NCBI GenBank assembly: GCA_049303575.1
Contig: JBAQNH010000002.1
Coordinates: forward strand, 380,541 to 444,540
DNA: 64,000 bases
Direction: 5' to 3'
DNA from: Microgenomates group bacterium
Lineage (GTDB): Bacteria > Patescibacteriota > Microgenomatia > UBA1400 > MFAQ01
Each line of letters begins with the position of its first letter. The first letter of the stretch is position 1. The notes below the pieces were generated by a model. The model was given only the letters and a program-made list of their open reading frames with translations, had not been told where the DNA came from and did not search any database. A program made the position numbers and the translations under genes. Shown in pieces: positions 2,066 through 58,005 of the stretch.

Positions 2066-2959
2066 TTGATATACTGGTTAATAGTGAAATATTTTTCACT
2101 ACTGCTTACAACCTGCCTAGTATTTTTTCTGTTCCCAAAATCGGCTCATTCCGCCATCACCCTAAATATTTCTAATCTCGAAAAAGGAGAAAGTAATTTT
2201 TCTCTGGACGCCACTCTTTCTGGAATCTCCAGCTCTTCAAGCTGTTATGTTCAGGTTGTTATCACTGCTCCTGGTTCACCTCACTATTTTGGCCAAACGT
2301 GGAGTCCAAAAGGGGAGTGGTTCAAATATATTTCTTCTCCCGCCAAAGAGTACATTGTTGAGAACTTCATCAAACTGGAAAATGACCAAACAACCAAAAT
2401 CATCTTCAATACCGATCCCGATGACGAAGACTACAAAGGTCCTGGCGAATATTTGGTTAAACTTAATCGATATACTGGTGGCTCAACTTCTTCCGCCGGT
2501 GACTCAAACTCTCTTACGATGAATATTGCCGACCCTACGCCCACGTCGGATCCTACGACTATCATTACGGAAACACCCACCAATACTCCTACATCAACTA
2601 CCACACCAACAAACACTCCCACCAACACTTCCACACCCACACCGGTTAGAACACCCACTAAAACACCTACCCCAACACCTACTCCCACAACAAAATTAAA
2701 AACTACCACCCCTACCAAAACTCCAGTCATTGCAATCAAAACTACTCCGTCAAACTTACTTTCGACACCCTCCACCATTTTAGGTGAGTCTACCGACTCC
2801 GCCTCGTTAAGTGCCGATATGGTTGTAAATATTGAAATTACCCCCACTCCGGAAAATATAATTAATAAACCCAAAAACTATAAAACTCCATTTTTCATTG
2901 GTCTATTCCTTGCCGTTTCCTCCAGCGCCTTACTATATTTTCGCCATCGAAAAGATTAA
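2066..2959 (+). CDS. Secreted Thr/Pro-rich protein with C-terminal TM anchor
   Basis: N-terminal signal/TM, globular region, then a long low-complexity TPT(N/K)TPT linker (aa ~150-230) and C-terminal hydrophobic segment plus 'RHRKD'. No LPXTG. Confidence 0.5.
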   Translation: MIYWLIVKYFSLLLTTCLVFFLFPKSAHSAITLNISNLEKGESNFSLDATLSGISSSSSCYVQVVITAPGSPHYFGQTWSPKGEWFKYISSPAKEYIVENFIKLENDQTTKIIFNTDPDDEDYKGPGEYLVKLNRYTGGSTSSAGDSNSLTMNIADPTPTSDPTTIITETPTNTPTSTTTPTNTPTNTSTPTPVRTPTKTPTPTPTPTTKLKTTTPTKTPVIAIKTTPSNLLSTPSTILGESTDSASLSADMVVNIEITPTPENIINKPKNYKTPFFIGLFLAVSSSALLYFRHRKD

Positions 2960-3359: not shown

Positions 3360-3748
3360 CCAAAAAGTTTGCCGAAAAACTTGAAAGGGGCACCACCATC
3401 TGTCTCTATGGAGAACTTGCTGCTGGCAAAACCACTTTTACCCAAGGAATTGGTCAGGCTTTTGGCATAGAACGACTTGTTTCACCTACCTTTCTCATCA
3501 TGCGTCAGTATCCGGTTGAAAATCATCCCGTTATTAAAACCATTTATCATCTCGATCTGTATCGTCTTAACTCCATCGAAGACATCAAAGCTTTTGCTGT
3601 GGAAGAAATCTGGTCCGACCCCGAAAACCTTCTTGTTATCGAATGGCCGGAAAAGTTTAAGGAAAATCTCCCCCAAATTCGTTACGACATTTTTTTCAAA
3701 GCCAATGGTGAAAATGAAAGAGAAATTAAAATCCACGAACACAAATGA
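3311..3748 (+). CDS. tsaE: tRNA t6A37 biosynthesis ATPase TsaE
   Basis: Walker A 'GELAAGKTTF', 'SPTFLIMRQY', 'HLDLYRL'. Size is right for TsaE/YjeE (145 aa). Confidence 0.75.
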   Translation: METTFISTSYEETREIAKKFAEKLERGTTICLYGELAAGKTTFTQGIGQAFGIERLVSPTFLIMRQYPVENHPVIKTIYHLDLYRLNSIEDIKAFAVEEIWSDPENLLVIEWPEKFKENLPQIRYDIFFKANGENEREIKIHEHK

Positions 3749-4071
3749 GAATCTACATCGACTCCACCGACAACACCAAAGCCGTCATAAGAATTAATGA
3801 CAAAGAATATACGAGAAATGTGGAAAGTCCTAGAGATCAGGACGTCTTAGGTTTTCTTGTTCATTGTTTGGAAGAGCAAAACATCCGTCCTGAAGACATC
3901 GATGAAATTGAAGTCAATCCCGGACCCGGATCTTTTACCGGTACTCGTGTTGGCGTCGCCATTGCCAACGCCTTAGGATTTGCCCTAGATATTAAAGTTA
4001 ACGGCTCAATGACGTCTGTCGAGCCAATCTATTCTTCACCTCCGTCAATTACTCAAAAGAAAGAAACTTGA
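3745..4071 (+). CDS. tsaB: TsaB (YeaZ)-like protein, N-terminal half only
   Basis: 'MRIYIDSTDN...' and 'NPGPGSFTGTRVGVAIANALGFAL' match the TsaB/Kae1 N-terminal subdomain. At 108 aa it is about half the size of canonical TsaB. Confidence 0.6.
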   Translation: MRIYIDSTDNTKAVIRINDKEYTRNVESPRDQDVLGFLVHCLEEQNIRPEDIDEIEVNPGPGSFTGTRVGVAIANALGFALDIKVNGSMTSVEPIYSSPPSITQKKET

Positions 4072-4095
4072 CAATTATGAGGCCGACGTTACAAT
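4068..4095 (+). promoter_or_regulatory. Sigma70-like promoter TTGACA-16 nt-TACAAT upstream of the adhesin gene
   Basis: TTGACA at 4068-4073, a 16-nt spacer, then TACAAT at 4090-4095. It lies about 115 nt upstream of the 4211 ATG. Confidence 0.4.
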
Positions 4096-4163
4096 ACGTC
4101 CTAGAAGGCATTGATTTATAACCTCTATTTGGTCACTTTGGTTATAAGGAGCTAATAGTGAAA

Positions 4164-4185
4164 CCGATCTAAAAAATTAGATCGG
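4164..4185. promoter_or_regulatory. Perfect 9-bp inverted repeat (CCGATCTAA-N4-TTAGATCGG) in the adhesin 5' leader
   Basis: Seen directly in the sequence, ~25 nt upstream of the start codon. It could be an operator or an RNA hairpin. Confidence 0.3.
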
Positions 4186-4210
4186 TCTACTGCCTGAACA
4201 AAATAAATCA

Positions 4211-7200
4211 ATGAAGTCTCGAAATGTACGGAAAATAATTTCGTTTATTTCCTCTTTTAGTCTCGTACTTCAAACTTTTCTCCCCCTAACTCTTGCTTTG
4301 CCCGTTTATGCCGAAGATAGCACTTCTTCTGCAACGGTCGAACCAACTACTACCCCAACTCCAATACTAGAACCAACGGTCACACCCACGGTCGAACCAA
4401 CTACTACCCCAACTCCAATACTAGAACCTACCACTACACCGACTACTGAACCTACCCCAGATATTGATCCAGCAATCACCGCTACCCCAACCGCACAACC
4501 AACTACAGAGCCGATAGTTGAGCTAATAGCCGATCCAACCGTCGAACCTACAACCACCCCAGCTCCAACAGAAATTCTAAACAACTCTCCTCCTGCGGAA
4601 GAGACCGCTTCTTCTTCAGAATCCACTCCCTCTCAAACAGAAACCTCCGCAGTAGAAACCATTCCTGAACCAATAACGATTGTTTCTCAACTTGAACAAG
4701 CCATCACTCCCGAAATTAAACCAACTCTCACAACCGACAAACCAGATTACTTCCCAACAGACACGGTCCATATTACTGGTACCAACTTTCTTCCAAATAC
4801 AACCTACACGCTCCATATTTCTTCACAAGACAATCCTGTTTTCAACTATAATCCAGAAGTTACTTCCGATAAAAATGGAAGTATTTTTCACTCTTTCGTT
4901 TTAGACAACAACTACCGTCCTAACTATACTATCGACGCCCTCGATGCTTCAGGAACAATTGTCACTTCCTACTCTTTTACTGACACCGACCCGATAGCAA
5001 ATGTCAGCAATTTAACTGAATTAACTGCTGCCTTGGCAAATACAAGTGTTACGACAATCAATATCACGGCCAATATTTCGGGAATTACCTCTAGCATAAT
5101 AATTGGACGTGCCGTAATTATTAATGGCAATGGGTTTACCTTAAGCCCAACCTTCGAAAAAACTAGCAACTCCAACAACGCTACCCTTGCCATTTTAAGT
5201 TCAAATGTGACACTAAACAATCTAACTGTCGATGGCACCCTCGGCACTAGTTTGCACGGCATCAATATTTACATGGTAAATAATGTCCTGCTCGACAGTG
5301 TTAGTGTCTTAAATAATGATAGAGCTGGAATTGTAGTCAACGGTTCAATCGTGACCGTCAACAACATCACAACAGCTGGTAATGGTTGGGGTGGTATCAA
5401 CGTTGATCAGGGATCCGGCGTAACAACAGAGGCAAAGTTAATTATTAACGGCATTAGTTCTCACAACGAAGCCATCCACATTTGGCTCGATGACACCACT
5501 AAAACTGTTTCTGTTCAAGATACTAATCCAAAACAGTATATATATCAAGATTATGGAAATAAACGTATTTATACATTAAAAACTACCGGTAATTCCTCCG
5601 CTGATCTTGACCAGTGGGGCAACGAAGCTCCTGTTGGTTGGCAAAACGGCAATTTAAATGGTAATCAAGCGGACTATTTTGAAGGCGACTCTGTTGCCTA
5701 TAGAATGAAGTTTAATAATCTTTCTCTCTCATCCCACACAGTAACAATCGGTTGGGATACCACCAAAGGTGGAAAGCATGCGTTGGACTACCTAACTAGT
5801 TATGATCGAACTGAAACCACAGATCCCTGTTCCGGAGTCACTGGTTGTACCGGACCTGCAACAACTTTTACAATTCCCGCAGACTCAAATATTCCCGCCG
5901 ATCCAAACTGGACAGGATCACAAATTCCTGGTAATTTTTCACTCTTTGGAGGAACAATAACCGGCGTATCTTCATACAACTTGATAAATTCGTATTCAGG
6001 CGATAGTGAAACTCAAATAACTATTACCTTTACAGCTTCTCAAAACAATCCGGTTTTAGCGTGGGGTGGTCATATCGCAACAAGAGCTAATTGGGGCCAA
6101 AATAATTCTGCAATCTCTATTTCAGGTTCGCCATATCATATGAGACTAAGAGGACTAGATGGATCAGGAGGAAATCAAGATCGATCTTTGGCATCAGAAG
6201 CAGTCATTTATCCAGCTACAATTACTATTGTTAAAGATGCGGTTCCCAATAGTGCACAGGATTTTTCATTCACAACATCGGGGACTGAACTCCCAATCTT
6301 TTCTCTTGATGATGATTCAGATACAGCCCTTTCCAACTCCAAGGTGTTTTCCATTACCAATTTTGCTAGCAATAACGGAGACACAAAAACAATAACAGAA
6401 AATCCCCAAGGCGGATGGTTACTTACAGGATTGGTTTGTAATGACAACAATGGATCCATTAATTTAGAAACAAGAACAGCTACCTTATCTGTCGTAGAAG
6501 GTGAAAATCTCACTTGTACCTTCACCAATACGCAACAAAATGGAACACTGAGAGTCAATAAGATCACTGTACCCAATGAAGCAGAAATTTTCAGTGTTAC
6601 GGCAACTGGATCCGGAACTATAACCGGAAACGCAACCCAAAATGTAACAGGTGGATCATACGTAGACTTCACGGTTACAACTGGAACATACTCTGTTACT
6701 GAGTCTCCCAAAGCAGGATGGAGTGAAACAGAAAATACTTGTACAAATGTATCGGTTCCCGCAGGTGGAATGGGTGAATGTACAATCACCAATTCTCAAA
6801 GAGGAAGTATTTTTGGATATAAATATGAAGATGCCAACGGGGATGGACAATCTGGGGACTGGACACCTATTCAAAATTGGATAATCGAACTTTGGCAAGG
6901 ACAAGCAAAAGTTGGGCAAACCCAAACACTGGTAAACGGTTATTTCTCATTTACCGATCTTATTCGTGGTGAATACACCCTGATCGAACAAATGCCCTCA
7001 GGATGGACAAATGTATCTACCGATTCATTAAATGTTTCGCTAAATCCAGGCGAAAATGACGGATCGAATAATTTTGTAAACACTAGATACGGCACAATTA
7101 TTGTTGAAAAACAAACTCTTCCGGATGGAGATTTACAAAACTTTACCTTTACGGGTGACATTGCAGGTACCATCGCGGATGGAGAAACAATATCCGTTAT

Positions 7201-8827
7201 AAATCGTTTGCCTGGAAGGTATAGTTCGACAGAAGTACTTCCCGATGGTTGGGATTTGACATCAATTTCCTGTAGTGACCAAAACAGTTCTGGAAATATT
7301 AATACCGGAGTTGCAACTTTTAATATTGAATCAGGAGAAACTGTCAAATGTACCTTTACCAATACCAAAAGGGCTCATATTATCATTGAGAAAAATGCAA
7401 TTCCTGATGGTTCACAAGTATTTACGTTTAACAATAATTTTGGGAATGGAAATCTTACAACATTTAACTTAACTGACACCACCACCACTGGACTTCCAAA
7501 CTATAACGCTGAAGTACTTCCAGGAACCTATTCAGTCTCGGAGAATGAAATTACAGGGTGGAAACAAGACAGCGCAGTTTGTGGCAATGGAGAAACTATA
7601 GATAGTATTGATGTGGCTGCAGGCGAAACAGTGACCTGTACTTTCACTAATAATAAATTATCCACAATTACACTACTCAAAAACACCGTGGGTGGAAACG
7701 GAAGTTTTGATTTTGATGCGACAGGTGTTGGTTTACCAGCAGACATTGATTTATCAACTGTTGCGGGTGTTGCTAGCCAATCATTTACCAATCTAGACCC
7801 TGACAATACATATTCTATTTTTGAGAATGTTCCTGCAGGATGGGATTTAACAAGCGCAGTTTGCGACAATGGCGACTCTGTATCAAGGATTACTCCGAAT
7901 TCTGGAGAAGAAATTATTTGTACTTTTACAAATACTAAAAAAGGCAAAATCATCATTAAAAAAGAAACAAATTTAGATGAAGACCAAACTGAATTTAGAT
8001 TTTCCTCTTCGTACTCTGAGGGTAACTTCTACCTGTCTAATGGTGAACAAAACGATAGTGGCTATTTAACCCCCGGCACATACTCAGTAAGGGAATCATC
8101 TAATGAAGGAGATGGTTGGGAGCTTACTAGTGCAGTTTGTAGTAATGAAGACACTCCCAATGAGATAACTCTCGGTGCCGGTGAAGAAGTTACCTGTACC
8201 TTCACCAATGAATATACTAAGCCCGAACTTCAAATCAGCAAATCCAACTTTGCGGGAGGCGATAAAACTCCGGGAAGTGCAGTTACCTACAGGATCTTGC
8301 TTAAGGTCCTAGGTTCAGACATCGACGGCATCACAGTCGAAGATCTTTTGCCCAAGGGTTTTATATATCGACCCGGTTCATACCAAGTCAAGATTAATGG
8401 ATTGATTGTCGACATTGATGAACCAGATTATCAATCACCTGGTACTTGGATCATTGATTATCTTGTTAAAGCTGGCCAAGAGGTTGAACTTCTCTACACC
8501 GCCGATATTTCCGGAGATCAACAACCTGGTGTCTATCCCGATGCCGCTTGGGCAGTCGGAACCTCAATGACTGAAGAAGAAGTTTGGGCACTAGCTCAAA
8601 CAGATGGGTATGTAGACACCAACTTTGTCGGCACCGAAGTGAATGTCATCAAAAAACAAACTAGTGACGACTCTTACTCCGTCGAAAAAGAAGAAATTAA
8701 AAAGGGCGAAGTGCTTGGAGCCACGACCTCTTTACCCGCAACTGGGGCTTCACCTGCCTGGTTAATGTTAGCCTTCGTCTGTCTTGTCTATGGAATCAGA
8801 TTAATAAAGTCAGGTAACAAAAAGTAA
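4211..8827 (+). CDS. Giant LPXTG-anchored surface protein (adhesin-like)
   Basis: 1538 aa. Signal peptide, then Thr/Pro-rich tandem repeats and an Asn-rich region with beta-helix-like 'NGNGFTL/NITTAGNGWGG' repeats. At least 6 repeated ~110-aa domains each carry a 'GW(D/E)LTS..C....(T/K)CTFTN' Cys pair. A C-terminal 'YRILLKVLG...' DUF11-like domain follows. It ends in 'LPATG' plus a hydrophobic stretch plus 'KSGNKK'. Confidence 0.8.
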   Translation: MKSRNVRKIISFISSFSLVLQTFLPLTLALPVYAEDSTSSATVEPTTTPTPILEPTVTPTVEPTTTPTPILEPTTTPTTEPTPDIDPAITATPTAQPTTEPIVELIADPTVEPTTTPAPTEILNNSPPAEETASSSESTPSQTETSAVETIPEPITIVSQLEQAITPEIKPTLTTDKPDYFPTDTVHITGTNFLPNTTYTLHISSQDNPVFNYNPEVTSDKNGSIFHSFVLDNNYRPNYTIDALDASGTIVTSYSFTDTDPIANVSNLTELTAALANTSVTTINITANISGITSSIIIGRAVIINGNGFTLSPTFEKTSNSNNATLAILSSNVTLNNLTVDGTLGTSLHGINIYMVNNVLLDSVSVLNNDRAGIVVNGSIVTVNNITTAGNGWGGINVDQGSGVTTEAKLIINGISSHNEAIHIWLDDTTKTVSVQDTNPKQYIYQDYGNKRIYTLKTTGNSSADLDQWGNEAPVGWQNGNLNGNQADYFEGDSVAYRMKFNNLSLSSHTVTIGWDTTKGGKHALDYLTSYDRTETTDPCSGVTGCTGPATTFTIPADSNIPADPNWTGSQIPGNFSLFGGTITGVSSYNLINSYSGDSETQITITFTASQNNPVLAWGGHIATRANWGQNNSAISISGSPYHMRLRGLDGSGGNQDRSLASEAVIYPATITIVKDAVPNSAQDFSFTTSGTELPIFSLDDDSDTALSNSKVFSITNFASNNGDTKTITENPQGGWLLTGLVCNDNNGSINLETRTATLSVVEGENLTCTFTNTQQNGTLRVNKITVPNEAEIFSVTATGSGTITGNATQNVTGGSYVDFTVTTGTYSVTESPKAGWSETENTCTNVSVPAGGMGECTITNSQRGSIFGYKYEDANGDGQSGDWTPIQNWIIELWQGQAKVGQTQTLVNGYFSFTDLIRGEYTLIEQMPSGWTNVSTDSLNVSLNPGENDGSNNFVNTRYGTIIVEKQTLPDGDLQNFTFTGDIAGTIADGETISVINRLPGRYSSTEVLPDGWDLTSISCSDQNSSGNINTGVATFNIESGETVKCTFTNTKRAHIIIEKNAIPDGSQVFTFNNNFGNGNLTTFNLTDTTTTGLPNYNAEVLPGTYSVSENEITGWKQDSAVCGNGETIDSIDVAAGETVTCTFTNNKLSTITLLKNTVGGNGSFDFDATGVGLPADIDLSTVAGVASQSFTNLDPDNTYSIFENVPAGWDLTSAVCDNGDSVSRITPNSGEEIICTFTNTKKGKIIIKKETNLDEDQTEFRFSSSYSEGNFYLSNGEQNDSGYLTPGTYSVRESSNEGDGWELTSAVCSNEDTPNEITLGAGEEVTCTFTNEYTKPELQISKSNFAGGDKTPGSAVTYRILLKVLGSDIDGITVEDLLPKGFIYRPGSYQVKINGLIVDIDEPDYQSPGTWIIDYLVKAGQEVELLYTADISGDQQPGVYPDAAWAVGTSMTEEEVWALAQTDGYVDTNFVGTEVNVIKKQTSDDSYSVEKEEIKKGEVLGATTSLPATGASPAWLMLAFVCLVYGIRLIKSGNKK
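4334..4460 (+). repeat. Tandem 54-bp (18-aa TVEPTTTPTPILEPTVTP) coding repeat, ~2.3 copies
   Basis: A near-identical DNA unit starts at 4334 and again at 4388. Confidence 0.6.
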
Positions 8828-9772
8828 ATGAAACTAAAACTATTTTTCTTCATAATACTCGCAATCTTTCTTATCCCAGTATCCGTTTTGGCGGCCACTT
8901 TTTCAGTTCGTATTGGTCAACCAAAGACACCTACCAATCAGGATAATTTCAAACTAACTTTTGTTGCTCTCGATACTCAAACGAGTGGTCGGAATATTAC
9001 CGTCAAGTGTTTTAAAAAAGGACCTTCTGATGGGGGATACTCCCAGTTTGATGGAGACAAAATTCTAATCGAAGGTGGCAACACTGATTACTGCAACGTT
9101 ACCAGCAGTATTTTGAATTCAAACGGCACTTATTCGTTTTATGTCACTGCCGAAGTTCCTTCCGAACCAATTCTTACAAGTACAACTGTTTTCGTTGATT
9201 ACAATAACTCCGGTCCCAGTACCCCAATCTCTTACTCCAAAGAAAGGTTAAACGACTGCGATTATAAGATTAAGTTCAAAACTGCCAATGATGGCAAAAC
9301 CTCCAAGGTCGAGTTGTATAGGTCAGACTCACCTTCCATCTCCATTGACTCCGGCCATCTTGTGACGACCCAAAACATTGGACCCAACACCGAAGGCTCT
9401 TTCACCAATAGCGTCCCCACTTGCGGCAAAGAATACTACTTTGCTATCAGAGCGGTAGATAACTCCGACAATGTTTCCGGCATTACCGGCGATAGTTTTA
9501 CCAAGGTAATAATCGAAGGTTCAACTACGACAACCGGAACTACCACCCAGCAAGCCCTACTTGCTCAAGGAGGTTCTCAGGTAACCGAGGAAACACCAAC
9601 CGAAGTTGCCGAAACAGCCATTACTCCCTCGAGCGAAGCTACCTCAACCGAATCCGGCACCCCCGAAGTTTTGGGTGCGCAGAAATCTAGATGGGACAAT
9701 ATAAGATGGCTTTCAATTCCTCTGATACTCATCGCGACCTTCTTCTTCCTCAAGTCCAAAAAACGAGCATAA
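8828..9772 (+). CDS. Secreted Ig/FN3-like domain protein with Ser/Thr-rich stalk and C-terminal TM anchor
   Basis: Signal peptide and two beta-sandwich-like modules ('YYFAIRAVDNSDNVSG' is FN3-like). A T/S-rich linker is followed by a C-terminal hydrophobic segment plus 'KSKKRA'. The start abuts the adhesin stop. Confidence 0.5.
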   Translation: MKLKLFFFIILAIFLIPVSVLAATFSVRIGQPKTPTNQDNFKLTFVALDTQTSGRNITVKCFKKGPSDGGYSQFDGDKILIEGGNTDYCNVTSSILNSNGTYSFYVTAEVPSEPILTSTTVFVDYNNSGPSTPISYSKERLNDCDYKIKFKTANDGKTSKVELYRSDSPSISIDSGHLVTTQNIGPNTEGSFTNSVPTCGKEYYFAIRAVDNSDNVSGITGDSFTKVIIEGSTTTTGTTTQQALLAQGGSQVTEETPTEVAETAITPSSEATSTESGTPEVLGAQKSRWDNIRWLSIPLILIATFFFLKSKKRA

Positions 9773-9778
9773 TAGTTC

Positions 9779-10345
9779 TTGATGAAACCAGTTATTGGAG
9801 TCCTCTTAGTTATTTTCTCGATTGTTGTCGTGGCCACAACTTACTTTCCTTTAGTCAAAAATGAAGTTGAGTATCAACTCAACAAAGCGAAAGGACAAAA
9901 AATTGAGGAAGTTACTCCCCTTAGCCAGGAATTTGGTATCGTTATTTCCAAACTTGGTATTAATGCCAAGATAATAAAAAACGTCAACCCCTACGACGCC
10001 AAAATCTACCAGAATGCTTTAACCAAAGGTGTCGCTCACGCCGAAGGCACAGCTCTTCCCGGAGAAGATGGAAATATCTTTATCTTTTCTCACTCTTCGG
10101 AAAACTTTTATGAAGCAGTTCGATACAACTCCGTTTTTTATCTCCTTCCGAAGTTGGAGTTAGGGGATACCATCACCCTCTATTACGATAACAATCGTTT
10201 CGATTACCACGTTTCGGAAAAAAAAGTTGTTGATCCTGGTGATATAAAATATCTAAACGCCAACTCCGAAAAACCCCAACTTACTCTCATGACCTGCTAC
10301 CCGCCAGGAACCAATCTAAAACGTTTCATCGTTGTCGCCAACTAG
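9779..10345 (+). CDS. Sortase family transpeptidase
   Basis: N-terminal TM anchor and a 'TLMTCYPPG' (TLxTC) catalytic-Cys motif. 188 aa. Immediately downstream of the LPXTG substrate. Confidence 0.7.
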   Translation: MMKPVIGVLLVIFSIVVVATTYFPLVKNEVEYQLNKAKGQKIEEVTPLSQEFGIVISKLGINAKIIKNVNPYDAKIYQNALTKGVAHAEGTALPGEDGNIFIFSHSSENFYEAVRYNSVFYLLPKLELGDTITLYYDNNRFDYHVSEKKVVDPGDIKYLNANSEKPQLTLMTCYPPGTNLKRFIVVAN

Positions 10346-10370
10346 ACCTTGTGCCATAATGAAATAAGTT

Positions 10371-11213
10371 ATGGCACATCCGTTTATTACTCTTTTCGCA
10401 CCCCATCCTCACAACAATCACAAAGCCAAAATTCTCCGGCCTCGTTCAATTGTTATCCTCATTGGACTTTTCATCATGGGCCGCTCCATTGTCGACATCA
10501 CTGTCGGCCTCAAACCTGGCGTTCTTGGTTTTGCCTCACAAATTGATCCGGACAAAGTCATCGAGCTAACCAACACGGAACGTCTCAGTGCTGGCGTTAC
10601 CCTTCTTAAAGAAAACTCTGAACTAGATCAAGCAGCCCTCGCCAAAGCTACCGACATGTTTGAAAATAATTACTGGGCACACGTTTCTCCGACCGGCACC
10701 GAACCCTGGTACTTCGTTACCCAGTCGGGTTACGAATATAAACACGCCGGTGAAAATCTTGCCCGTGACTTCAGCAATCCAAAGGATGTTGTGACCGCCT
10801 GGATGGCCTCTCCAACCCATCGTCAGAACCTTCTTGATAATCGGTACAAGGACATTGGTGTCGCCGTCGTTGATGGCTATATCAACGGTGTCGAGACTAC
10901 CATTGTTGTCCAACTATTTGGTTCAACTCAAAACACTGTTGCCAAAATTGCTTCAACCACGGTGACCAATACTGTTTTTGCCAAGGAAGTTCCGGACAAG
11001 CTTATCCCCAGCTCCGGTCTTTCACCCATGGACCTCTCGCGCGCCTGGTCACTAGCCTTTGTCATTCTTATTTTATTTGCCCTTAGTCTCGACTGGATCT
11101 TCGTTCTCCGTTACAACATCATTCGTATCTCAGGTAAAACTTGGGCTCATTTAACCTACTTTGTCGGCCTCGCCATAATTCTCCTTATTATTCGTCAAGG
11201 AATCGTTCTATGA
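10371..11213 (+). CDS. CAP/SCP (YkwD-like) domain protein, membrane-anchored
   Basis: 'NNYWAHVSPTG', 'HAGENLARDF', 'WMASPTHRQNLLDNRYKDIGVAVV' match the CAP domain. TMs are present at both ends. Confidence 0.65.
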   Translation: MAHPFITLFAPHPHNNHKAKILRPRSIVILIGLFIMGRSIVDITVGLKPGVLGFASQIDPDKVIELTNTERLSAGVTLLKENSELDQAALAKATDMFENNYWAHVSPTGTEPWYFVTQSGYEYKHAGENLARDFSNPKDVVTAWMASPTHRQNLLDNRYKDIGVAVVDGYINGVETTIVVQLFGSTQNTVAKIASTTVTNTVFAKEVPDKLIPSSGLSPMDLSRAWSLAFVILILFALSLDWIFVLRYNIIRISGKTWAHLTYFVGLAIILLIIRQGIVL

Positions 11214-43806: not shown

Positions 43807-44929
43807 ACGTCTTTTTTGGATTATCCTCATTTTAGGTCTGGTAATTAGATTGGTCTTAGCCTATTTCCAATATTCCGGAGATATCAAAAATCACTTTGTC
43901 TGGGGAAATGGTTTTTTGGAAAATCCAGTTGATTTTTATTCTCGTCACTTCGCAGGTTACAACGACCCAAATTATCCACCCTTAGCCATCATTTTCTTCG
44001 CAGCCGCCAATCTTCTTCACCAGGCCGTTAGTAGTTTCCTCTTATTACTTAATAGAACTTTCAGTTTCTTTCCTTCATTTATTGTTCCGCTCATTATCCA
44101 CGAAAATACGCGTTTCGCTTTTCTGAAACTCCCTGGGATCATTGCCGACATCTTTACTTTTACGATAATCTACAAGTTTCTTACCAAGCAAAAATCAAAG
44201 AGACCCTTACTCCTCGCCAGTCTTTATCTATTTAATCCTGCCGTTATCTATATTTCTTCAGTTTGGGGACAGATAGAACCCCTCACCAATCTATTTCTGG
44301 TATGGTCCTTATATATTGCCCTGTACTCACCCCTGCGTTATTTTTCAATTCTGGTTTTTGCCCTTGGTGTACTCACAAAACAAACCACCCTTTGGTTTGG
44401 TCCGCTATATTTAATTCTTTGGTTAAAGCAGCTGACGAAGGATGAAATTTTTAGAGGTCTTGTTCTTTCACTCGGAGCCTTTTTTGCCTCCTTCCTTCTT
44501 TTTAGGATTGGACCCAGTTCAGCCATCAGCATATACTTCCAAACACTTTCTGGTTCTTCTACTCTGGTTTCCGACGCCGCTTGGAATATCTGGCACTTTC
44601 TTTTTCCCCCAGGTACCGAAGACGCCATTACCATCAAGGGGATTTCGGTAAGATCATTATCGATCTTTATTCTTTTCTCCTCCCTTTTTTATCTAATCAT
44701 CAAAGAACTCAAAAACTTTTCCATGTCTCGTTTCCTCAACCACCTCTTTATCTGGTCCCTTTTGGTATTTTTTATCCAGACTCGTGTCCACGAACGCCAT
44801 TTGGCTCCGGCCATCCTTTTCTGTCTCCTTACTCCCGGATTATTCTCTCGATACTTATTAGATTTCTTCGTCCTCTCCGCTTATCATATGTATAACCTAT
44901 ACTGGAGTCTGAGACTACCATTTATATGA
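43784..44929 (+). CDS. Polytopic membrane protein, putative GT-C glycosyltransferase
   Basis: 381 aa, multi-TM. Confidence 0.4.
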   Translation: MTEKTQTKRLFWIILILGLVIRLVLAYFQYSGDIKNHFVWGNGFLENPVDFYSRHFAGYNDPNYPPLAIIFFAAANLLHQAVSSFLLLLNRTFSFFPSFIVPLIIHENTRFAFLKLPGIIADIFTFTIIYKFLTKQKSKRPLLLASLYLFNPAVIYISSVWGQIEPLTNLFLVWSLYIALYSPLRYFSILVFALGVLTKQTTLWFGPLYLILWLKQLTKDEIFRGLVLSLGAFFASFLLFRIGPSSAISIYFQTLSGSSTLVSDAAWNIWHFLFPPGTEDAITIKGISVRSLSIFILFSSLFYLIIKELKNFSMSRFLNHLFIWSLLVFFIQTRVHERHLAPAILFCLLTPGLFSRYLLDFFVLSAYHMYNLYWSLRLPFI

Positions 44930-46563
44930 TCAACCTAATTCTTGTCGGTATCTTATCAATCGCGGCGTTTTTCCGTCTATTTAATCTAAGCACACTTCCA
45001 ATCTCTCTTTTTGGCGACGAAATCGATGTCGGTTACCACGCCTGGTCTTTGATTACCACGGGGCGGGATTATATGGGCAATCTTTTGCCGACATATATTC
45101 ACAGCCTCTCTGAGTGGCGTGCACCCCTATTGATGTATATAACTGCTCCCTTTGTCGGAATTCTTGGACCCACCGCTTTTGCTGTCCGTCTTCCAGTAGC
45201 TCTTCTTGGCGTTGCCTCCGTTTATCCTTTATATTTACTGGTCAAACACCTTTCCAAAAACACTACGTTGGCCTTGCTTTCCGCTCTCGTTTTGGCTCTC
45301 ACTCCTTGGCACATTCACTACTCCAGGGCTTCTTTCGAAGTGGTCCCTTTAATTTTCTTGCTTCTCTGGGGCACTTATCTTTTTACTAAAGAAAAATACT
45401 TTGCTAGTCTCATTCCCTTCGTTCTTACTTTCTACACCTACTCAACCGCCAACATCTTTACCCCGTTATTTGTTCTGGGGCTTCTCCTTATTTACCGTCC
45501 CAAATTAAATCTCAAAAAGAACTGGGCTAAATTAATTCTTCCCGTAATCTTAATTCTTCCCATGGCCTACAACGTTTTATTTGGTCAGGCTAGTGGACGC
45601 TTTGGTATTATCAGCGTCTTTAATGATCAAAAAATTATTGACCAACTCATCATCAAAAGAACCGATCCCTGGATAAAAGCCTCACCATTTGAAACAGTCT
45701 TCCATAATAAATATTTTGCTTACGCTACCGCCATTGGTTCAAACTATGTCTCTGCACTTTCTCCCCAGTTCCTTTTCCTCAAAGGCGATCCATTTTTCCG
45801 TCACTCTATAAGTGAACAAGGAGAGCTTCTTTGGATTTTCCTCCCCTTCTTTTTACTCGGTCTTTTTGCTCTTCTTAAAAACATCTCGGAAAAGCAAAAC
45901 AAACTAATTCTTCTTTGGTTGCTTCTCGCCCCTATTCCATCCAGTCTCACCCAGGGTGGGGGAGATCATGCTACCCGTCTCTTCCTTATGGTTCCACCCC
46001 TAGTACTAATTACTGCCATGGGTTTCTGGGAATTTGTTTCCAAAATTAAATTCAAAAAGATTTTTATTCTCATCATTGGTTCTCTCTTGATTCTGGCTTT
46101 TGCCAACTACTTCCATCAATACTCCATTCATTACAAATTCGACTCCGCCAGATTTTGGCAGTATGGTTACGAGAGTATCTTTACCCAATTGAAGGCGGCA
46201 GAAGTTGGCGCCAAAAATGTCTATATCAACAATTCCTACGAACCATCGCTATTAAAATTCGCTTTTTATACCCAGTACCCTCCGAGTAAATTCCAAAAAG
46301 ATTTTCAAGGTGATCAGCCAGAGGCATACGATATTGGCATATTCAAAGGGTTCCGTTTTGGAGAAAACTACTTTTTTGGCCAAGTAGGTAATCTCGATGA
46401 TCTTCAAAAACTTCTTCAACCGGGAGACATCTATCTTGCCGCTCAACTCAAAGAAATTCCCGGGGATTGGGACTGGTCAGTCACAGCTCCTTTTGGATTG
46501 AAAACCGTAGGCTTCACCCGAGATTTACTGGGTCAGCCATTATTTACCATCGTCAAACGTTAA
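44926..46563 (+). CDS. GT-C glycosyltransferase, PMT/ArnT-like paralog 1 of tandem array
   Basis: 'SLFGDEIDVGYHAWSLITTGRDYMGNLLP'. 545 aa. C-terminal 'YG(Y/F)' domain. Confidence 0.65.
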   Translation: MINLILVGILSIAAFFRLFNLSTLPISLFGDEIDVGYHAWSLITTGRDYMGNLLPTYIHSLSEWRAPLLMYITAPFVGILGPTAFAVRLPVALLGVASVYPLYLLVKHLSKNTTLALLSALVLALTPWHIHYSRASFEVVPLIFLLLWGTYLFTKEKYFASLIPFVLTFYTYSTANIFTPLFVLGLLLIYRPKLNLKKNWAKLILPVILILPMAYNVLFGQASGRFGIISVFNDQKIIDQLIIKRTDPWIKASPFETVFHNKYFAYATAIGSNYVSALSPQFLFLKGDPFFRHSISEQGELLWIFLPFFLLGLFALLKNISEKQNKLILLWLLLAPIPSSLTQGGGDHATRLFLMVPPLVLITAMGFWEFVSKIKFKKIFILIIGSLLILAFANYFHQYSIHYKFDSARFWQYGYESIFTQLKAAEVGAKNVYINNSYEPSLLKFAFYTQYPPSKFQKDFQGDQPEAYDIGIFKGFRFGENYFFGQVGNLDDLQKLLQPGDIYLAAQLKEIPGDWDWSVTAPFGLKTVGFTRDLLGQPLFTIVKR

Positions 46564-46572
46564 AAAGGGTAA

Positions 46573-48273
46573 ATGTTCAAAAATAAGTCTCTATTACTTC
46601 TAGTTGCGATTGTTTTTTTGTCCGCGTTTTTCCGTTTGTACCGTCTCGATTTGAATCCTCCCAGTTTATACTCTGACGAGGTTGATATCGGCTATCAAGT
46701 TAAGTCGCTACTTGCGACAGGTAAAGACTACCAAGGGTATATTCTTCCCCTTCAGTTTCACTCTTTCTCGGATGTTCGTACTTCCCTTCCCATCTATGCC
46801 ACTACCTTAGTCTCACTTATTCCCGGAGTGTCTCTCGATCTGGCCATCCGTCTCACTCCGGCTATTTTTTCCCTTCTTTCTCTTATCCTGATCTATTTTT
46901 TAACGAATAATCTGTTTACGTTGTTCAAAATAAAAAAAGAAAATAGTCTTTTGGAACCGGGGATCTGGGCTTCCCTCTCTTTGTCCCTTCTTCCGTGGCA
47001 CTACACCTACTCCCGTATCGGTTTTGAACTCTCGATGCTATTTTTCTTCGTTGTTTTTGGACTATTTTTATACACTCGATTTCTTCAAAACAAAAACCAA
47101 AGATTACTAGTCCTGAGTTTAATCGTTTTATCTTTGGTGCCTATGGTCTACAGTACCGCCAAACTCTCCGTTATTTTTTACCCCTTAATCCTTTTTTTAC
47201 TTCCCGGAGGCTATGAATTTTTCAAAACCAAAAAGAACCGAGTCTATCTGCTAATCCTTTTTATTCCTCTCGGTGTACTTTTCCTCAATGGAGGAGCCAG
47301 TAAACGTTTTAGCGAAATTTCTATTTTTACGGATCCTACTGCCTCAACGGAGATAGATGTCATTCGTCAGGTTGATCTTGGCTCAAACCCACCGATCGGT
47401 TCAGTCCCGGACTTAAACACCAAAATAGTCCATAACAAAATTGTTTTTATTGTAAACACCCTCACCAAAAATCTCATCAACCCCATTTCCGGAGGTTTTC
47501 TCTTTCTCCAGGGAGACGAAAATCAACGCCATGCCGTCACTGGTTGGGGGATGTTGGAAAAATCTCTGATTGTCCCTCTACTTCTCGGTCTTTATTTTCT
47601 CATCTCAAGAAAACATAAAAGATTTCTGGCACTTCTTGCTGTTCTTTGGATTTCCGCTACCACCCCCGCCGCGCTCACTAGAGATGGTTTTAATCACGCC
47701 TCAAGAAACTTCATGATGATTCTTCCTCTTGTCTTGTTGATTTCTACTGGTTTTCACCACCTACTAAAATCTTCTAAATTATTGACTATTCTATTAACTG
47801 TTCTGCTACTTGTAGAATCCGCTCTCTATTTTCATGACTACTGGTATCACTACCAGTACGATTCCCAAAGAGACTGGAACTATGGTCTAAAGCAAGTGAT
47901 TCTCGAAACCAACAAGTATTCTGGACGACCGGTCATTATTACCAGAAACTACGAACCACCACTTATCTATTATCTTTACTATGCAAACTTTCCACCAGCC
48001 AAGTTCCAGGAGATGTATCAAACCAAAACTTTCCTCGAAAAAGTTGATCAAAAACTAAATATCGAAGGAGAGAAACTCACGGGAACAAATGTTTACTTCG
48101 CCTCAATCATCGATAAAGAATTAGCGAATCCGTTTTTAATAAAGAATGGAGTTTATGTTCTAACCCACAACGAGTATCTCGAGACCAAAGAACCAAACCA
48201 TTCCCTGCTTGAGACTGTCAAATTCCCAACCGGCCTTCCTGTTCTTTATATTCTCGATGCAAACAAACTATAA
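46573..48273 (+). CDS. GT-C glycosyltransferase, PMT/ArnT-like paralog 2
   Basis: 'SLYSDEVDIGYQVKSLLATGKDYQG'. 566 aa. Confidence 0.65.
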   Translation: MFKNKSLLLLVAIVFLSAFFRLYRLDLNPPSLYSDEVDIGYQVKSLLATGKDYQGYILPLQFHSFSDVRTSLPIYATTLVSLIPGVSLDLAIRLTPAIFSLLSLILIYFLTNNLFTLFKIKKENSLLEPGIWASLSLSLLPWHYTYSRIGFELSMLFFFVVFGLFLYTRFLQNKNQRLLVLSLIVLSLVPMVYSTAKLSVIFYPLILFLLPGGYEFFKTKKNRVYLLILFIPLGVLFLNGGASKRFSEISIFTDPTASTEIDVIRQVDLGSNPPIGSVPDLNTKIVHNKIVFIVNTLTKNLINPISGGFLFLQGDENQRHAVTGWGMLEKSLIVPLLLGLYFLISRKHKRFLALLAVLWISATTPAALTRDGFNHASRNFMMILPLVLLISTGFHHLLKSSKLLTILLTVLLLVESALYFHDYWYHYQYDSQRDWNYGLKQVILETNKYSGRPVIITRNYEPPLIYYLYYANFPPAKFQEMYQTKTFLEKVDQKLNIEGEKLTGTNVYFASIIDKELANPFLIKNGVYVLTHNEYLETKEPNHSLLETVKFPTGLPVLYILDANKL

Positions 48274-48280
48274 TTAATTT

Positions 48281-57892: not shown

Positions 57893-57907
57893 TGTAGAAT
57901 ATTTATA

Positions 57908-57996
57908 GCTGTCAAGAGAACCACTAAAAAGGTCGGCAACCGAGCCTCCAAAAGGTCGCGGTGCCAAAATGACAAGCCTCTGTTATTAATTAGAGG
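57908..57996 (+). ncRNA. Candidate SAM-responsive riboswitch (S-box-like motifs) plus SD-sequestering hairpin in the metK leader
   Basis: P1-like helix GCUGUCA/UGACAAGC enclosing AGAGA, GGCAACC and GGUGCCAA. A CCUCU-N10-AGAGG hairpin follows, containing the metK Shine-Dalgarno sequence. Confidence 0.4.
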
Positions 57997-58005
57997 AAAA
58001 ACAAA

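Follow-up and report, generated by a model that had tools for sequence, protein, structure and literature searches.

In Gram-positive bacteria, SpaA-type pili are encoded by clusters that combine a tip adhesin, pilin subunits and a class C sortase, and a dedicated sortase system of proteobacteria (class GN 'marine', TIGR03784) serves a single target and is accompanied by an accessory protein. In Clostridioides difficile, a c-di-GMP-II riboswitch turns on a sortase substrate (PMC4591827); the adhesins CD2831 and CD3246 are controlled by the c-di-GMP-II riboswitches Cdi2_3 and Cdi2_1, respectively, anchored by SrtB and shed by ZmpI (Peltier et al., 2015, PMC4591827). In Bacillus thuringiensis, the c-di-GMP riboswitch Bc2 is reported to control the collagen adhesion protein Cap (PMC4933901). 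Members of CPR/Patescibacteria are thought to be attached to other cells, and their known attachment machinery consists largely of type IV pili and Pam pili. The latter are assembled by donor-strand exchange with chaperone-usher-like factors, and sortase appears in their description only as background (bioRxiv 10.64898/2026.03.03.709456).

Here we analyzed a stretch of 64,000 nucleotides (the window), whose closest relatives were MAGs of Candidatus Collierbacteria (Microgenomates, CPR), which bore out the suspicion in the first-pass annotation that the organism was CPR-like. The window contains a putative surface-attachment cassette of three genes, which encode a giant LPATG adhesin, a small FN3 protein with a membrane anchor and a sortase dedicated to the cassette. 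The three ORFs (4211..8827, 8828..9772 and 9779..10345, all on the forward strand) have exactly the coordinates given before, and the functional unit begins further upstream, at 4068 rather than at 4211. The comparative set for Microgenomates comprised 68 genome loci and 890 clusters (50% identity), and nearly all of the 68 loci had the genes for adhesin, FN3 protein and sortase in this order. The locus adds a defined, conserved substrate-partner-sortase module with an extended sorting signal to what is known of CPR attachment. Our main reading is that it represents a c-di-GMP-gated surface-display operon of a Collierbacterium, with a probability of roughly 0.6. The next gene on the forward strand, encoding a CAP/YkwD-family membrane protein (10371..11213; Pfam/NCBIfam profile searches and neighbourhood comparison), is possibly a fourth operon member. 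It adjoins the cassette only in Collierbacteria- and Woesebacteria-type loci, and a terminator-like hairpin (10350-10378) overlaps its start.

The adhesin (1538 aa, 4211..8827), which was analyzed by ORF calling, Pfam and repeat alignment, starts with a signal peptide (aa 1-34) and a Thr/Pro-rich linker (35-165). Its Asn-rich region, previously described as beta-helix-like, indeed corresponded to the Pfam Pectate_lyase_5 beta-helix (aa 263-391), and is followed by a domain without Pfam assignment (~455-675), six SpaA-like Cys-pair repeats together with one SdrD_B-like domain (676-1335), and a DUF11-like domain (1336-1498). The six repeats proved to be real, but their length was ~90-100 aa instead of the ~110 aa first estimated; their Cys pairs are located at 743/769, 844/857, 1021/1047, 1124/1143, 1218/1237 and 1310/1329, and each repeat closes with C-T-[FI]-T-N. 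A domain search agreed with the proposal that they resemble Ig-like pilin/adhesin modules, with Pfam matches to SpaA_4 (142.2 bits vs 27.3, over five stretches) and SpaA_2 (61.7 vs 25). Of the residues of a putative isopeptide triad (first-strand Lys, Glu and last-strand Asn), the Glu of YSxxE and the Asn of CTFTN were invariant in all six aligned repeats, and the first-strand Lys was present in the five repeats that span this strand; in the shortened first repeat, a Lys lies just upstream of the alignment. No NCBIfam family was found for the adhesin or the FN3 protein, and no Pfam family for adhesin aa 161-264 and 454-680. Sequence comparison of the whole adhesin with PDB yielded no match, and a word-index homologue search with its C-terminal 204 aa returned none at E<=0.001. 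The length of the adhesin was highly variable in relatives, from 773 to 2713 aa.

The C-terminus of the adhesin, GEVLGATTSLPATGASPAWLMLAFVCLVYGIRLIKSGNKK followed by the stop codon, confirmed the previously reported combination of LPATG, a hydrophobic stretch and KSGNKK. The extended sorting signal (8705..8824, forward strand) comprises GEVLGATT (8705-8728), a Ser, LPATG (8732-8746), the hydrophobic segment ASPAWLMLAFVCLVYGIRLI (8747-8806) and KSGNKK (8807-8824), a typical LPXTG layout that was conserved in about 60 orthologues. Alignment of the fetched loci gave the logo G[EQ]VLGAST-x(0-5)-LP[AS]TGA in about 60 loci, and the peptide GEVLGATTSLPATGAS is a putative sortase substrate. The G-x-V-L-G-x-x-T motif precedes the anchor in both the adhesin, where it lies 0-5 aa before LPxTG, and the FN3 protein, where it was detected at a median distance of 18 aa ahead of the membrane helix (123/142 vs a background of 0.04). 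The VLG motif also occurs in further envelope proteins that lack LPXTG, such as the family of ORF 2066-2959, for which no Pfam family was found.

The ORF at 9779..10345 (188 aa, forward strand) starts 952 nt past the adhesin stop codon at TTG 9779, or more likely at ATG 9782, and contains the expected TLxTC motif in the form TLMTC as well as an N-terminal membrane helix (aa 3-23). Its identification as a sortase, for which an HMM search and the catalytic triad had been named as the check, withstood both: PF04203 scored 87.0 bits (cutoff 26.6) and TIGR01076 66.7 (cutoff 39.35), and His105 (10091-10093), Cys173 of TLMTC (10295-10297) and Arg182 (10322-10324) did not vary among 63 operon-linked orthologues or within alignment A4, and aligned to PDB sortases. 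The top 50 Foldseek PDB matches of the AlphaFold model (pLDDT 83.6) were all sortases (E down to 9e-12), led by class C sortases and C. perfringens SrtD; the best PDB match by sequence was also C. perfringens SrtD (4d70). On the other hand, the sortase missed every NCBIfam class cutoff, with 69.2 bits vs 160 for class C (NF033745) and 58.2 vs 165 (NF033746) and 62.5 vs 140 (NF058671) for class D. The C-terminal membrane helix of class C is absent, as the protein ends 6 aa past Arg182 and its sole helix is N-terminal. At the site of the class C DP[WFY] lid, no DPW-type motif was present and the family consensus was P-x-D-x-x-F.

The FN3 partner protein (314 aa, 8828..9772, forward strand) was examined by ORF calling, alignments, AlphaFold and Foldseek. 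Its earlier description as a secreted FN3-like protein with a C-terminal TM but no LPXTG held, with a signal peptide at aa 1-22 and a membrane helix at 289-308 followed by the tail KSKKRA. The mature part comprises the motif VRIGQPKTPT (aa 27-36, nt 8906-8935), the domains FN3a (25-125) and FN3b (130-228), and a disordered Thr/Ser/Glu stalk (231-287) that contains EVLG (VLG at nt 9668-9676) and K286. The AlphaFold model shows two beta-sandwich domains, whose fold matches were tandem FN3 pairs (neogenin, DCC and RbmA; E 2e-8 to 1e-5), and domain 2 carries the FN3 signature (Y-corner / A-x-N-x-x-G-x-S) as YYFAIRAVDNSDNVSG; in Pfam, neither the FN3 HMM nor any other family matched. The best-conserved stretch of the family was the N-terminal PK motif (V-R-L-x-Q-P-K-S-P-T). 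None of 142 FN3-module proteins had an LPXTG within the last 45 aa. Several lysines were frequent among the 261 family members (K33 in 223, K63 in 225, K64 in 233, and K138, for which Arg can substitute, in 253), and none was invariant. Lys33 was ruled out as an obligate acceptor, as it is missing in 38/261 members, including some intact-looking loci. Lys residues were approximately 10 times more abundant between the VLG motif and the helix than in the rest of the stalk (0.139 vs 0.013), and 179/190 proteins had a Lys there. Intramolecular isopeptides were also ruled out for this protein: N215/S217/G221 are residues of the regular FN3 signature, and a conserved Asn or Asp is lacking from the last strand of domain 1.

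In the window, the adhesin and FN3 ORFs share the same frame and are divided by a single TAA (8825-8827). Readthrough of this codon is neither needed nor supported, and relatives also have overlapping or out-of-frame junctions. Among 142 further cluster representatives, 91 (~64%) were adhesin-FN3 fusions, 88 of which had an internal LPxTG. In the fused precursor, the internal LPxTG is followed by a membrane hairpin of two helices and a site that resembles a signal peptide: all 80 parsed fusions had a linker of 41-70 aa with exactly two hydrophobic segments, and the loop between these segments had a median of 4 Lys/Arg and 0 Asp/Glu. Such a polyprotein with internal LPXTG is an unusual architecture. 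We know of no pilus precursor in which an internal LPXTG is followed by a membrane hairpin, and none was found in a full-text literature search. Because the gene order is strict and in-frame fusion is frequent, the FN3 protein is probably an obligate partner of the adhesin.

We propose that the adhesin, FN3 protein and sortase are translated from closely spaced, coupled ORFs and are then secreted via Sec, after which the C-terminal sorting signal would hold the adhesin in the membrane. The sortase (Cys173/His105/Arg182) would then cleave LPATG between Thr and Gly and move the adhesin to an envelope amine. In this scheme the FN3 protein would accompany the adhesin in one-to-one proportion. Throughout Microgenomates, its coding sequence lies between those of substrate and sortase, and in most lineages it is translated as the C-terminal portion of a precursor shared with the adhesin. 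By analogy with C. difficile CD2831, peptidoglycan may serve as the default acceptor, for which we see about even odds.

The main alternative, tentative and in our opinion somewhat on the unlikely side, is a two-subunit 'minimal pilus', in which the sortase would link Thr1511 of the adhesin to an amine on the FN3 protein, itself anchored in the membrane, so that the fibre would be tethered to the membrane and not to the wall. The amine could be offered by Lys33 in the N-terminal motif, by the alpha-amine exposed by signal peptidase or by a juxtamembrane Lys after VLG, and G-x-VLG-x-x-T might act as a docking element that lines up donor and acceptor on the sortase. Such a linkage would fit the constant position of the FN3 gene and its fusion to the adhesin in most clusters, the membrane anchor that the FN3 protein always has in place of an LPXTG of its own, the VLG motif common to both anchors, the Lys-rich stretch before the FN3 helix, the conservation of the PK motif, and a sortase that, by both sequence and fold, most resembles pilin-linking class C enzymes. 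However, this sortase falls below the class C cutoff and lacks the C-terminal helix, the FN3 family has no invariant lysine and K33 is missing from intact-looking loci, and the VLG motif is shared by envelope proteins that have no LPXTG. A related and slightly less probable possibility, which should be considered unlikely, is that the fused precursors are processed as polyproteins: cleavage by the sortase at the internal LPAT/G and by signal peptidase after the second hairpin helix would excise the membrane hairpin, and the sortase would join the adhesin covalently to FN3. The joining site would be either the new N-terminal region of FN3 or the Lys-rich juxtamembrane segment, with the VLG motif as docking site. 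If true, the product would be a fibre of two pieces tethered to the membrane, and sortase would have a new use.

Canonical wall anchoring to lipid II/peptidoglycan, with FN3 as a co-expressed but independent surface protein that has no anchoring role, appeared less probable still. It is the default for LPXTG proteins and has been demonstrated for CD2831 (PMC4591827); moreover, the window contains peptidoglycan-linked genes (FtsX and a PcsB-like M23 peptidase), and the FN3 protein offers no invariant nucleophile. However, it would leave unexplained why FN3 is placed between substrate and sortase across Microgenomates, why in-frame fusion via a conserved hairpin has occurred repeatedly and why the two proteins have the VLG motif in common.

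With regard to expression of the main reading's operon, we identified a sigma-70-type promoter (4068..4095, forward strand) with -35 TTGACA (4068-4073), a 16-nt spacer and -10 TACAAT (4090-4095), which agrees with the consensus at 11/12 positions. Both hexamers were kept in four diverged relatives (L001, L002, L003 and L079), in which the spacer has drifted. The previously noted strong promoter is near-consensus, but it is probably not the sole control, as a c-di-GMP-II riboswitch, absent from the first-pass annotation, occupies the 5' leader. The aptamer (RF01786, 4095..4178, forward strand) was detected by the Rfam covariance model at full length (67.0 bits vs a gathering score of 53.5, E 7.8e-13), and L001, L002 and L003 scored 63.0, 65.0 and 54.9, respectively. 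P1 is formed by 4102-4105 with 4168-4171 and P2 by 4116-4123 with 4140-4147; the pseudoknot pairs UCAC (4133-4136) with GUGA (4158-4161), a compensated change relative to the Rfam consensus GCAC/GUGC. The outer P1 pairs are missing, which is consistent with a transcription start at ~4102. In 11 related aptamers, 93% of cells were paired, compared with 24-42% for slid structures used as control, and 9 pairs had changed on both sides.

The combination of promoter and aptamer was also found ahead of the adhesin orthologues of L001, L002, L003 and L079, as well as those of the metagenome loci L070 and L074-L077; the metagenome loci are mostly sequence-identical to L001. A degenerate core regex on 68 loci and Rfam scans of 14, a survey that divergent or other-class riboswitches could escape, limited the riboswitch to one Collierbacteria subclade; therefore, it should be regarded as an add-on to the module and not as part of its core. 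We could find no earlier example of a c-di-GMP riboswitch in a CPR genome.

Folding of the leader suggested how such a riboswitch might act. A hairpin (H, ACCGAUCUAA/UUAGAUCGGU, 4163..4186, forward strand), present in the MFE folds of 5/5 distinct leaders, competes with the P1 3' strand and the ACCG core. The translation start region AUAAAUCAAUG (4203..4213, forward strand; AUG at 4211-4213) is complementary at 11/11 positions to aptamer nucleotides 4109-4119 (CAUUGAUUUAU), with which it is predicted to form an anti-start helix in the OFF state. Complementarity of this extent was matched by 12/5000 shuffles here and by 2-184 of 5000 in four other leaders. In 5/5 distinct leaders, the aptamer 5' half paired with AUCAAUG (folding z-scores -2.4 to -4.5), which is conserved among them. 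The five leaders are related, and their anti-start helix showed conservation, not compensatory change. The aptamer-enforced fold leaves the AUG region unpaired. No Shine-Dalgarno sequence was visible upstream of the adhesin start. By nearest-neighbour energies, the OFF fold had -34.4 kcal/mol and the aptamer-enforced fold -9.8, pseudoknot and ligand excluded; with a gap of ~25 kcal/mol toward the OFF fold, the switch would have to be kinetic, operating during transcription.

The complementarity between aptamer and start region predicts a translational ON switch. Transcription from the consensus promoter would start almost exactly at the P1 stem. When c-di-GMP is absent, hairpin H would capture the P1 3' strand, and the freed aptamer 5' half would pair with -8 to +12 of the adhesin start codon, an OFF state suggested by the folds and the conserved complementarity. 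When c-di-GMP is bound, the aptamer would be locked and the A-rich start region left single-stranded, allowing translation. The opposing view, that the element acts in transcription, is an OFF switch or is a decaying relic that came from Firmicutes, seems improbable. It could account for the restriction to one subclade, the c-di-GMP enzymes not seen in the window or fetched loci, the energy gap and the homology of hairpin H to terminator stems of non-CPR aptamers. However, hairpin H has no 3' U-tract, unlike those relatives; the aptamer retains its core, pseudoknot and P2, and compensatory changes distinguish four diverged Collierbacteria lineages in which the surrounding leader has drifted; both AUCAAUG and the promoter hexamers have been conserved; and the known c-di-GMP-II switches ahead of adhesins are ON switches (PMC4591827).

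As for the source of the ligand, Pfam searches of ~48 ORFs of at least 108 aa and a six-frame motif scan revealed no diguanylate cyclase, EAL, HD-GYP or PilZ in the window, and no GGDEF, EAL or HD-GYP motifs turned up when 1.19 Mb of sequence from related and other fetched loci was scanned. The literature examined on cyclases in CPR contained nothing specific to this lineage. In the polyprotein reading, where c-di-GMP would switch the Collierbacteria operon in an organism that has no evident cyclase, the ligand might be acquired from a host. A c-di-GMP riboswitch in CPR would imply that at least some ultra-small bacteria use, or eavesdrop on, the sessile-versus-free messenger to time adhesin display.

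Comparison with known systems showed a mixture of shared and distinct features. A true polymeric sortase pilus with adhesin subunits joined head to tail, the sense in which the first-pass term 'pilus-like' was not upheld, is very improbable despite the SpaA/CnaB-like domains with conserved Lys/Glu/Asn signature and the class C-like sortase, because there is only one LPXTG protein, large and of variable length, no small major pilin with pilin motif and LPXTG, no PK-type motif in the adhesin part of fused ORFs, and a sortase below the NCBIfam class cutoffs. The cassette shares with Gram-positive SpaA-type pili the SpaA/prealbumin-like Ig domains with this signature, and a dedicated sortase that is encoded beside its substrate and has its best sequence and fold matches in class C. 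It differs in that the partner has an FN3 fold and a membrane anchor instead of LPXTG, and in the sortase, with 69 bits vs the class C cutoff of 160 and no C-terminal membrane helix. The combination of one sortase, one substrate and an extra conserved protein recalls the TIGR03784 system, of which the locus is not a member (score 32 vs 158); motif, accessory protein and taxon differ too. Pam pili are likewise CPR-specific surface filaments of Ig-like folds and occur in Microgenomatia (bioRxiv 10.64898/2026.03.03.709456); identity of the cassette with them was rejected, as assembly by donor-strand exchange makes them a different system.

B. thuringiensis Bc2/Cap is similar in having a c-di-GMP riboswitch in an adhesin 5' UTR, but its host is a Firmicute, and the abstract of that report mentions neither an operon sortase nor an FN3 partner (PMC4933901). 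The closest precedent is C. difficile CD2831. In CD2831/CD3246, as here, a class II aptamer lies directly ahead of a large sortase-substrate adhesin and is ON at high c-di-GMP (predicted for our locus), and a short conserved motif is found by the anchor, namely ZmpI cleavage sites in C. difficile and G-x-VLG-x-x-T here. However, the C. difficile sortase is not described in the adhesin operon, whereas the Collierbacteria sortase is in the operon; control in C. difficile is transcriptional or via a ribozyme, whereas start-codon sequestration without a terminator is predicted here; and our locus is further distinguished by its FN3 partner or polyprotein, by LPATG in place of PPKTG/SPKTG and by its CPR host.

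The locus encodes an adhesin module that is gated by a riboswitch and has its own dedicated sortase and a conserved FN3 partner; the module also occurs in a polyprotein form. The three ORFs proposed in the first-pass annotation, namely the adhesin (4211-8827), a middle FN3 protein (8828-9772) and a sortase (9779-10345), were all found where it had placed them and lie on the + strand. The adhesin (1538 aa) starts with a signal peptide, contains a Thr/Pro-rich linker of 130 aa and ends in GEVLGATTSLPATG-ASPAWLMLAFVCLVYGIRLI-KSGNKK, with KKGEVLGATTSLPATGASP as a candidate sortase substrate peptide. Pfam analysis revealed SpaA_4 (142 bits in five stretches), SpaA_2 and Pectate_lyase_5 (aa 263-391), together with a sub-threshold SdrD_B match and a weak DUF11-like resemblance of the C-terminal domain; residues 161-264 and 454-680 matched no Pfam family. 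Repeat alignment also bore out the six Cys-pair repeats noticed at first pass, in which the Glu of YSxxE, the Cys pair and the Asn of CTFTN were invariant and a first-strand Lys was aligned in five of the six. Judged by these residues, the repeats bear the signature of SpaA/CnaB isopeptide domains plus a predicted extra disulfide.

The sortase (188 aa, probable start ATG 9782) has an N-terminal membrane helix and a TLMTC motif. Its identity, first proposed from the motif, held up: the Pfam Sortase model scored 87 bits, and His105, Cys173 and Arg182 were invariant in 63 orthologues. All NCBIfam class cutoffs were missed (class C, 69 vs 160; SrtD, 62 vs 140; class D, 58 vs 165; class E, 42 vs 160). 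The best PDB sequence matches were C. perfringens SrtD and class C enzymes, and class C sortases were the first structural matches of the AlphaFold model (pLDDT 83.6); both the C-terminal helix and the DPW lid of class C were absent. Each of the best 120 homologues was either without a source name or labelled as Microgenomates/Patescibacteria or as an unclassified 'bacterium'. The enzyme is a genuine sortase beyond the curated classes.

The FN3 protein (314 aa) begins with a signal peptide, ends in a hydrophobic helix followed by the tail KSKKRA, and lacks LPXTG. Its homologues were found only in CPR Microgenomates, the nearest in Candidatus Collierbacteria. AlphaFold predicted two confident beta-sandwiches (aa 25-228, pLDDT mostly >85), matched by Foldseek to tandem FN3 pairs, followed by a disordered stalk (231-287) and a membrane helix. 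Cys61/89 and Cys144/199 were invariant or nearly so, and the most conserved linear motif, [VI]-[RK]-[LI]-x-[QE]-P-K-[ST]-P-T, lies five residues past the signal-peptide cut. Of 142 members, 123 carry a [VI]LG motif in the stalk (consensus G-x-[VI]-L-G-x-x-T; background rate 0.04 per 90 aa), and Lys was ten times more frequent between this motif and the membrane than in the remaining stalk.

A scan of GTDB species genomes yielded 68 loci (L001-L068), nearly all of which had the adhesin, FN3 protein and sortase in this order on the same strand, with genes that mostly abut or overlap; an exhaustive profile search gave 890 clusters at 50% identity. Adhesin C-termini always comprised G-[EQ]-V-L-G-A-S-T, 0-5 residues, L-P-[AS]-T-G-A, a hydrophobic segment and a basic tail. 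At the split-gene loci, adhesin orthologues ranged from 773 to 2713 aa, and the sorting signal and the segment preceding it (FVGTxVxV...) were conserved despite this variation, which suggests that the binding domains turn over rapidly. At many loci the adhesin and FN3 protein were fused into one ORF, for example an ORF of 2286 aa in L025. Among 142 further cluster representatives, none of whose FN3 modules had an LPXTG of its own, 91 were long proteins in which the FN3 module forms the very C-terminal end, and an internal LPxTG was present in 88 of these 91 fusions. In all 80 parsed cases the fusion linker was 41-70 aa long with exactly two hydrophobic segments, and the loop between them had a median of four Lys/Arg and no Asp/Glu. 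By its sequence the linker is a membrane hairpin, and its second helix also acts as the FN3 module's signal peptide. Because the adhesin and FN3 ORFs of the window are in frame and parted only by TAA-ATG (KSGNKK*MKLKLFF), the split form amounts to the fused one interrupted, within its cytoplasmic loop, by a stop codon and a start codon. Taken across genomes, these sequences indicate a lineage-wide module in which the FN3 protein is an obligate partner.

The [VI]LG motif was also found in other envelope proteins of the same genomes. A conserved 297-aa protein of the window (2066-2959, + strand), with homologues in L001, L002, L004, L006, L008, L011 and L051 and no Pfam family, has a Thr/Ser/Pro-rich linker with [VI]LG-x-S-T, a motif it shares with both the adhesin and the FN3 protein, about 38 aa before its C-terminal hydrophobic segment. 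In L023 (2360-3881, - strand) a protein of ~300 aa ends in VLGAST-MAGTG plus a membrane segment and overlaps a divergent second sortase gene, a similar protein in L020 (1938-2807, + strand) ends in VLGAST-FAGTG, and one in L025 (12207-13529, + strand) has VLGIST-KK-LPKTG. These three proteins suggest that more than one type of sortase-substrate pair may exist in Microgenomates, the pairs differing in motif but all sharing VLGxxT.

The gap between a consensus promoter (TTGACA-16-TACAAT, 4068-4095, + strand) and the adhesin ATG at 4211 is filled by a full-length c-di-GMP-II riboswitch aptamer (4095-4178, + strand; Rfam 67 bits vs gathering 53.5, E 7.8e-13), which the first-pass annotation had overlooked. 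The outermost P1 positions of the Rfam model are unpaired here and coincide with the -10 box, which makes the functional P1, near 4102, the probable start of the transcript. The stop codon of an upstream TsaB-like ORF (3745-4071, + strand; only 108 aa, the N-terminal part of the TsaB/YeaZ model) falls within the -35 box. The pseudoknot is UCAC/GUGA, a compensated change relative to the family consensus GCAC/GUGC. Promoter and aptamer also occur together 5' of the orthologous adhesin genes of L001, L002, L003 and L079. Further metagenome loci with this arrangement are L070 and L074-L077, the majority identical in sequence to L001. Among the Collierbacteria MAGs, LCDA01, CAZENT01, DDWV01 and Ga0209417_1000058 have the switch. 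An Rfam scan found no aptamer in L004, L007, L008, L009, L011, L013, L016, L017, L019, L022 and L024 (other Collierbacteria, Woesebacteria, Gottesmanbacteria, Levybacteria and Pacebacteria), and a conserved-core regular expression found no additional one in the 68 loci. Six non-CPR metagenome contigs (L069, L071, L072, L073, L078 and L080) have c-di-GMP-II aptamers with an identical 30-nt core (UCAC/GUGA variant), most of them preceding an evident stem and U-tract terminator. When 11 aptamers sharing one core (five CPR and six non-CPR) were compared, 93% of cells were paired, nine pairs differed on both sides and slid controls collapsed.

In the non-CPR relatives, the terminator following the aptamer uses an ACCG segment; CPR leaders keep the homologous hairpin (4163-4186 in the window) without the U-tract. 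This arrangement is consistent with acquisition of the CPR aptamer from such a non-CPR lineage, followed by rewiring. In minimum free energy folds of CPR leaders, the 5' half of the aptamer is paired to the adhesin start region, and the P1 5' strand to codons 2-4; CAUUGAUUUAU (4109-4119) complements AUAAAUCAAUG (4203-4213, AUG included) at 11/11 positions. Such pairing was seen in all five distinct leaders (z-scores -2.4 to -4.5), in each of which the complementarity overlapping the AUG beat shuffles (2 to 184 of 5000 equalled it). The core AUCAAUG is conserved amid drift in the remaining leader, and support for the helix comes from conservation, without compensatory change. Enforcing the aptamer fold left the AUG region fully unpaired, and no Shine-Dalgarno sequence was visible upstream of the adhesin start. 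The simplest reading of these folds is a translational ON switch, as would be expected for an adhesin. The computed OFF state was ~25 kcal/mol more stable than the aptamer fold, whose energy left out tertiary and ligand contributions, and control would therefore need to be kinetic. Neither the window nor 1.19 Mb of fetched loci showed any enzyme that makes or breaks c-di-GMP.

The genes of the window form an envelope island, with FtsX, a PcsB-like M23 peptidase, VanZ, TsaE and the short TsaB upstream, and CAP/YkwD, RmlA/B/D, many GT2 and GT4 enzymes, a flippase and at least 10 PMT/PMT_2/YfhO-type GT-C paralogues downstream. The large envelope/glycosylation part spans 11496-62171, with about ten GT2 enzymes, GT4s and a Wzx-like flippase besides RmlA/B/D; six tandem GT-C ORFs of 545-566 aa lie at 44926-54884, of which two were scanned. 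A possible function of these glycosyltransferases is O-glycosylation of the FN3 stalk and of the adhesin's Thr/Pro-rich linkers. Just past the sortase stop, an 11-bp hairpin with a weak T-tail (10350-10378, + strand) overlaps the annotated CAP/YkwD start; it may terminate some of the transcripts or control how CAP is translated. A SAM-I/IV riboswitch (57904-58012, + strand; 42.1 bits vs gathering 41.1, Rfam) lies immediately 5' of metK (SAM synthetase; 58006-59109, + strand), with 7 nt of overlap into its annotated start. Such an arrangement is classic, and it gives this CPR window a second riboswitch. Over 1-58000, C strongly and consistently exceeded G on the + strand (GC skew about -0.1 to -0.28), which carries nearly all genes; near 58 kb the skew flips and GC content drops to 0.31-0.36.

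The analysis establishes what the parts are, the presence of the aptamer, the order of the genes and the architecture of the fusions; the mechanism is proposed. c-di-GMP would free the adhesin start codon, the coupled ORFs would be translated together, Sec would export the adhesin and FN3 protein, and the sortase would cut LPATG between Thr and Gly and move the adhesin onto an amine. We take peptidoglycan as the default acceptor, at roughly even odds (about 0.5), because of the CD2831 precedent in C. difficile (PMC4591827), and peptidoglycan-linked genes are present in the window. This choice leaves the FN3 partnership without explanation, which a sortase joining the adhesin to the FN3 protein would provide: such a linkage would account for the gene order and fusion, the motif common to both proteins and the class-C-like sortase. 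However, no Lys is invariant among the 261 members of the FN3 family (Lys33 occurs in 223), which weakens this second model, and we regard it as a tentative alternative to peptidoglycan attachment.

The main points of interest are a c-di-GMP riboswitch in a CPR genome and an internal-LPXTG precursor. Full-text literature searches found nothing joining riboswitch, c-di-GMP and Patescibacteria, or Collierbacteria and riboswitch, or Microgenomates with sortase and LPXTG, and nothing with internal LPXTG; papers on Patescibacteria and LPXTG covered only unrelated topics according to their titles and abstracts. The recently described Pam pilus of CPR bacteria is an unrelated system. The regulatory logic matches that of the C. 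difficile adhesins CD2831/CD3246 (PMC4591827) and of B. thuringiensis Bc2-Cap.
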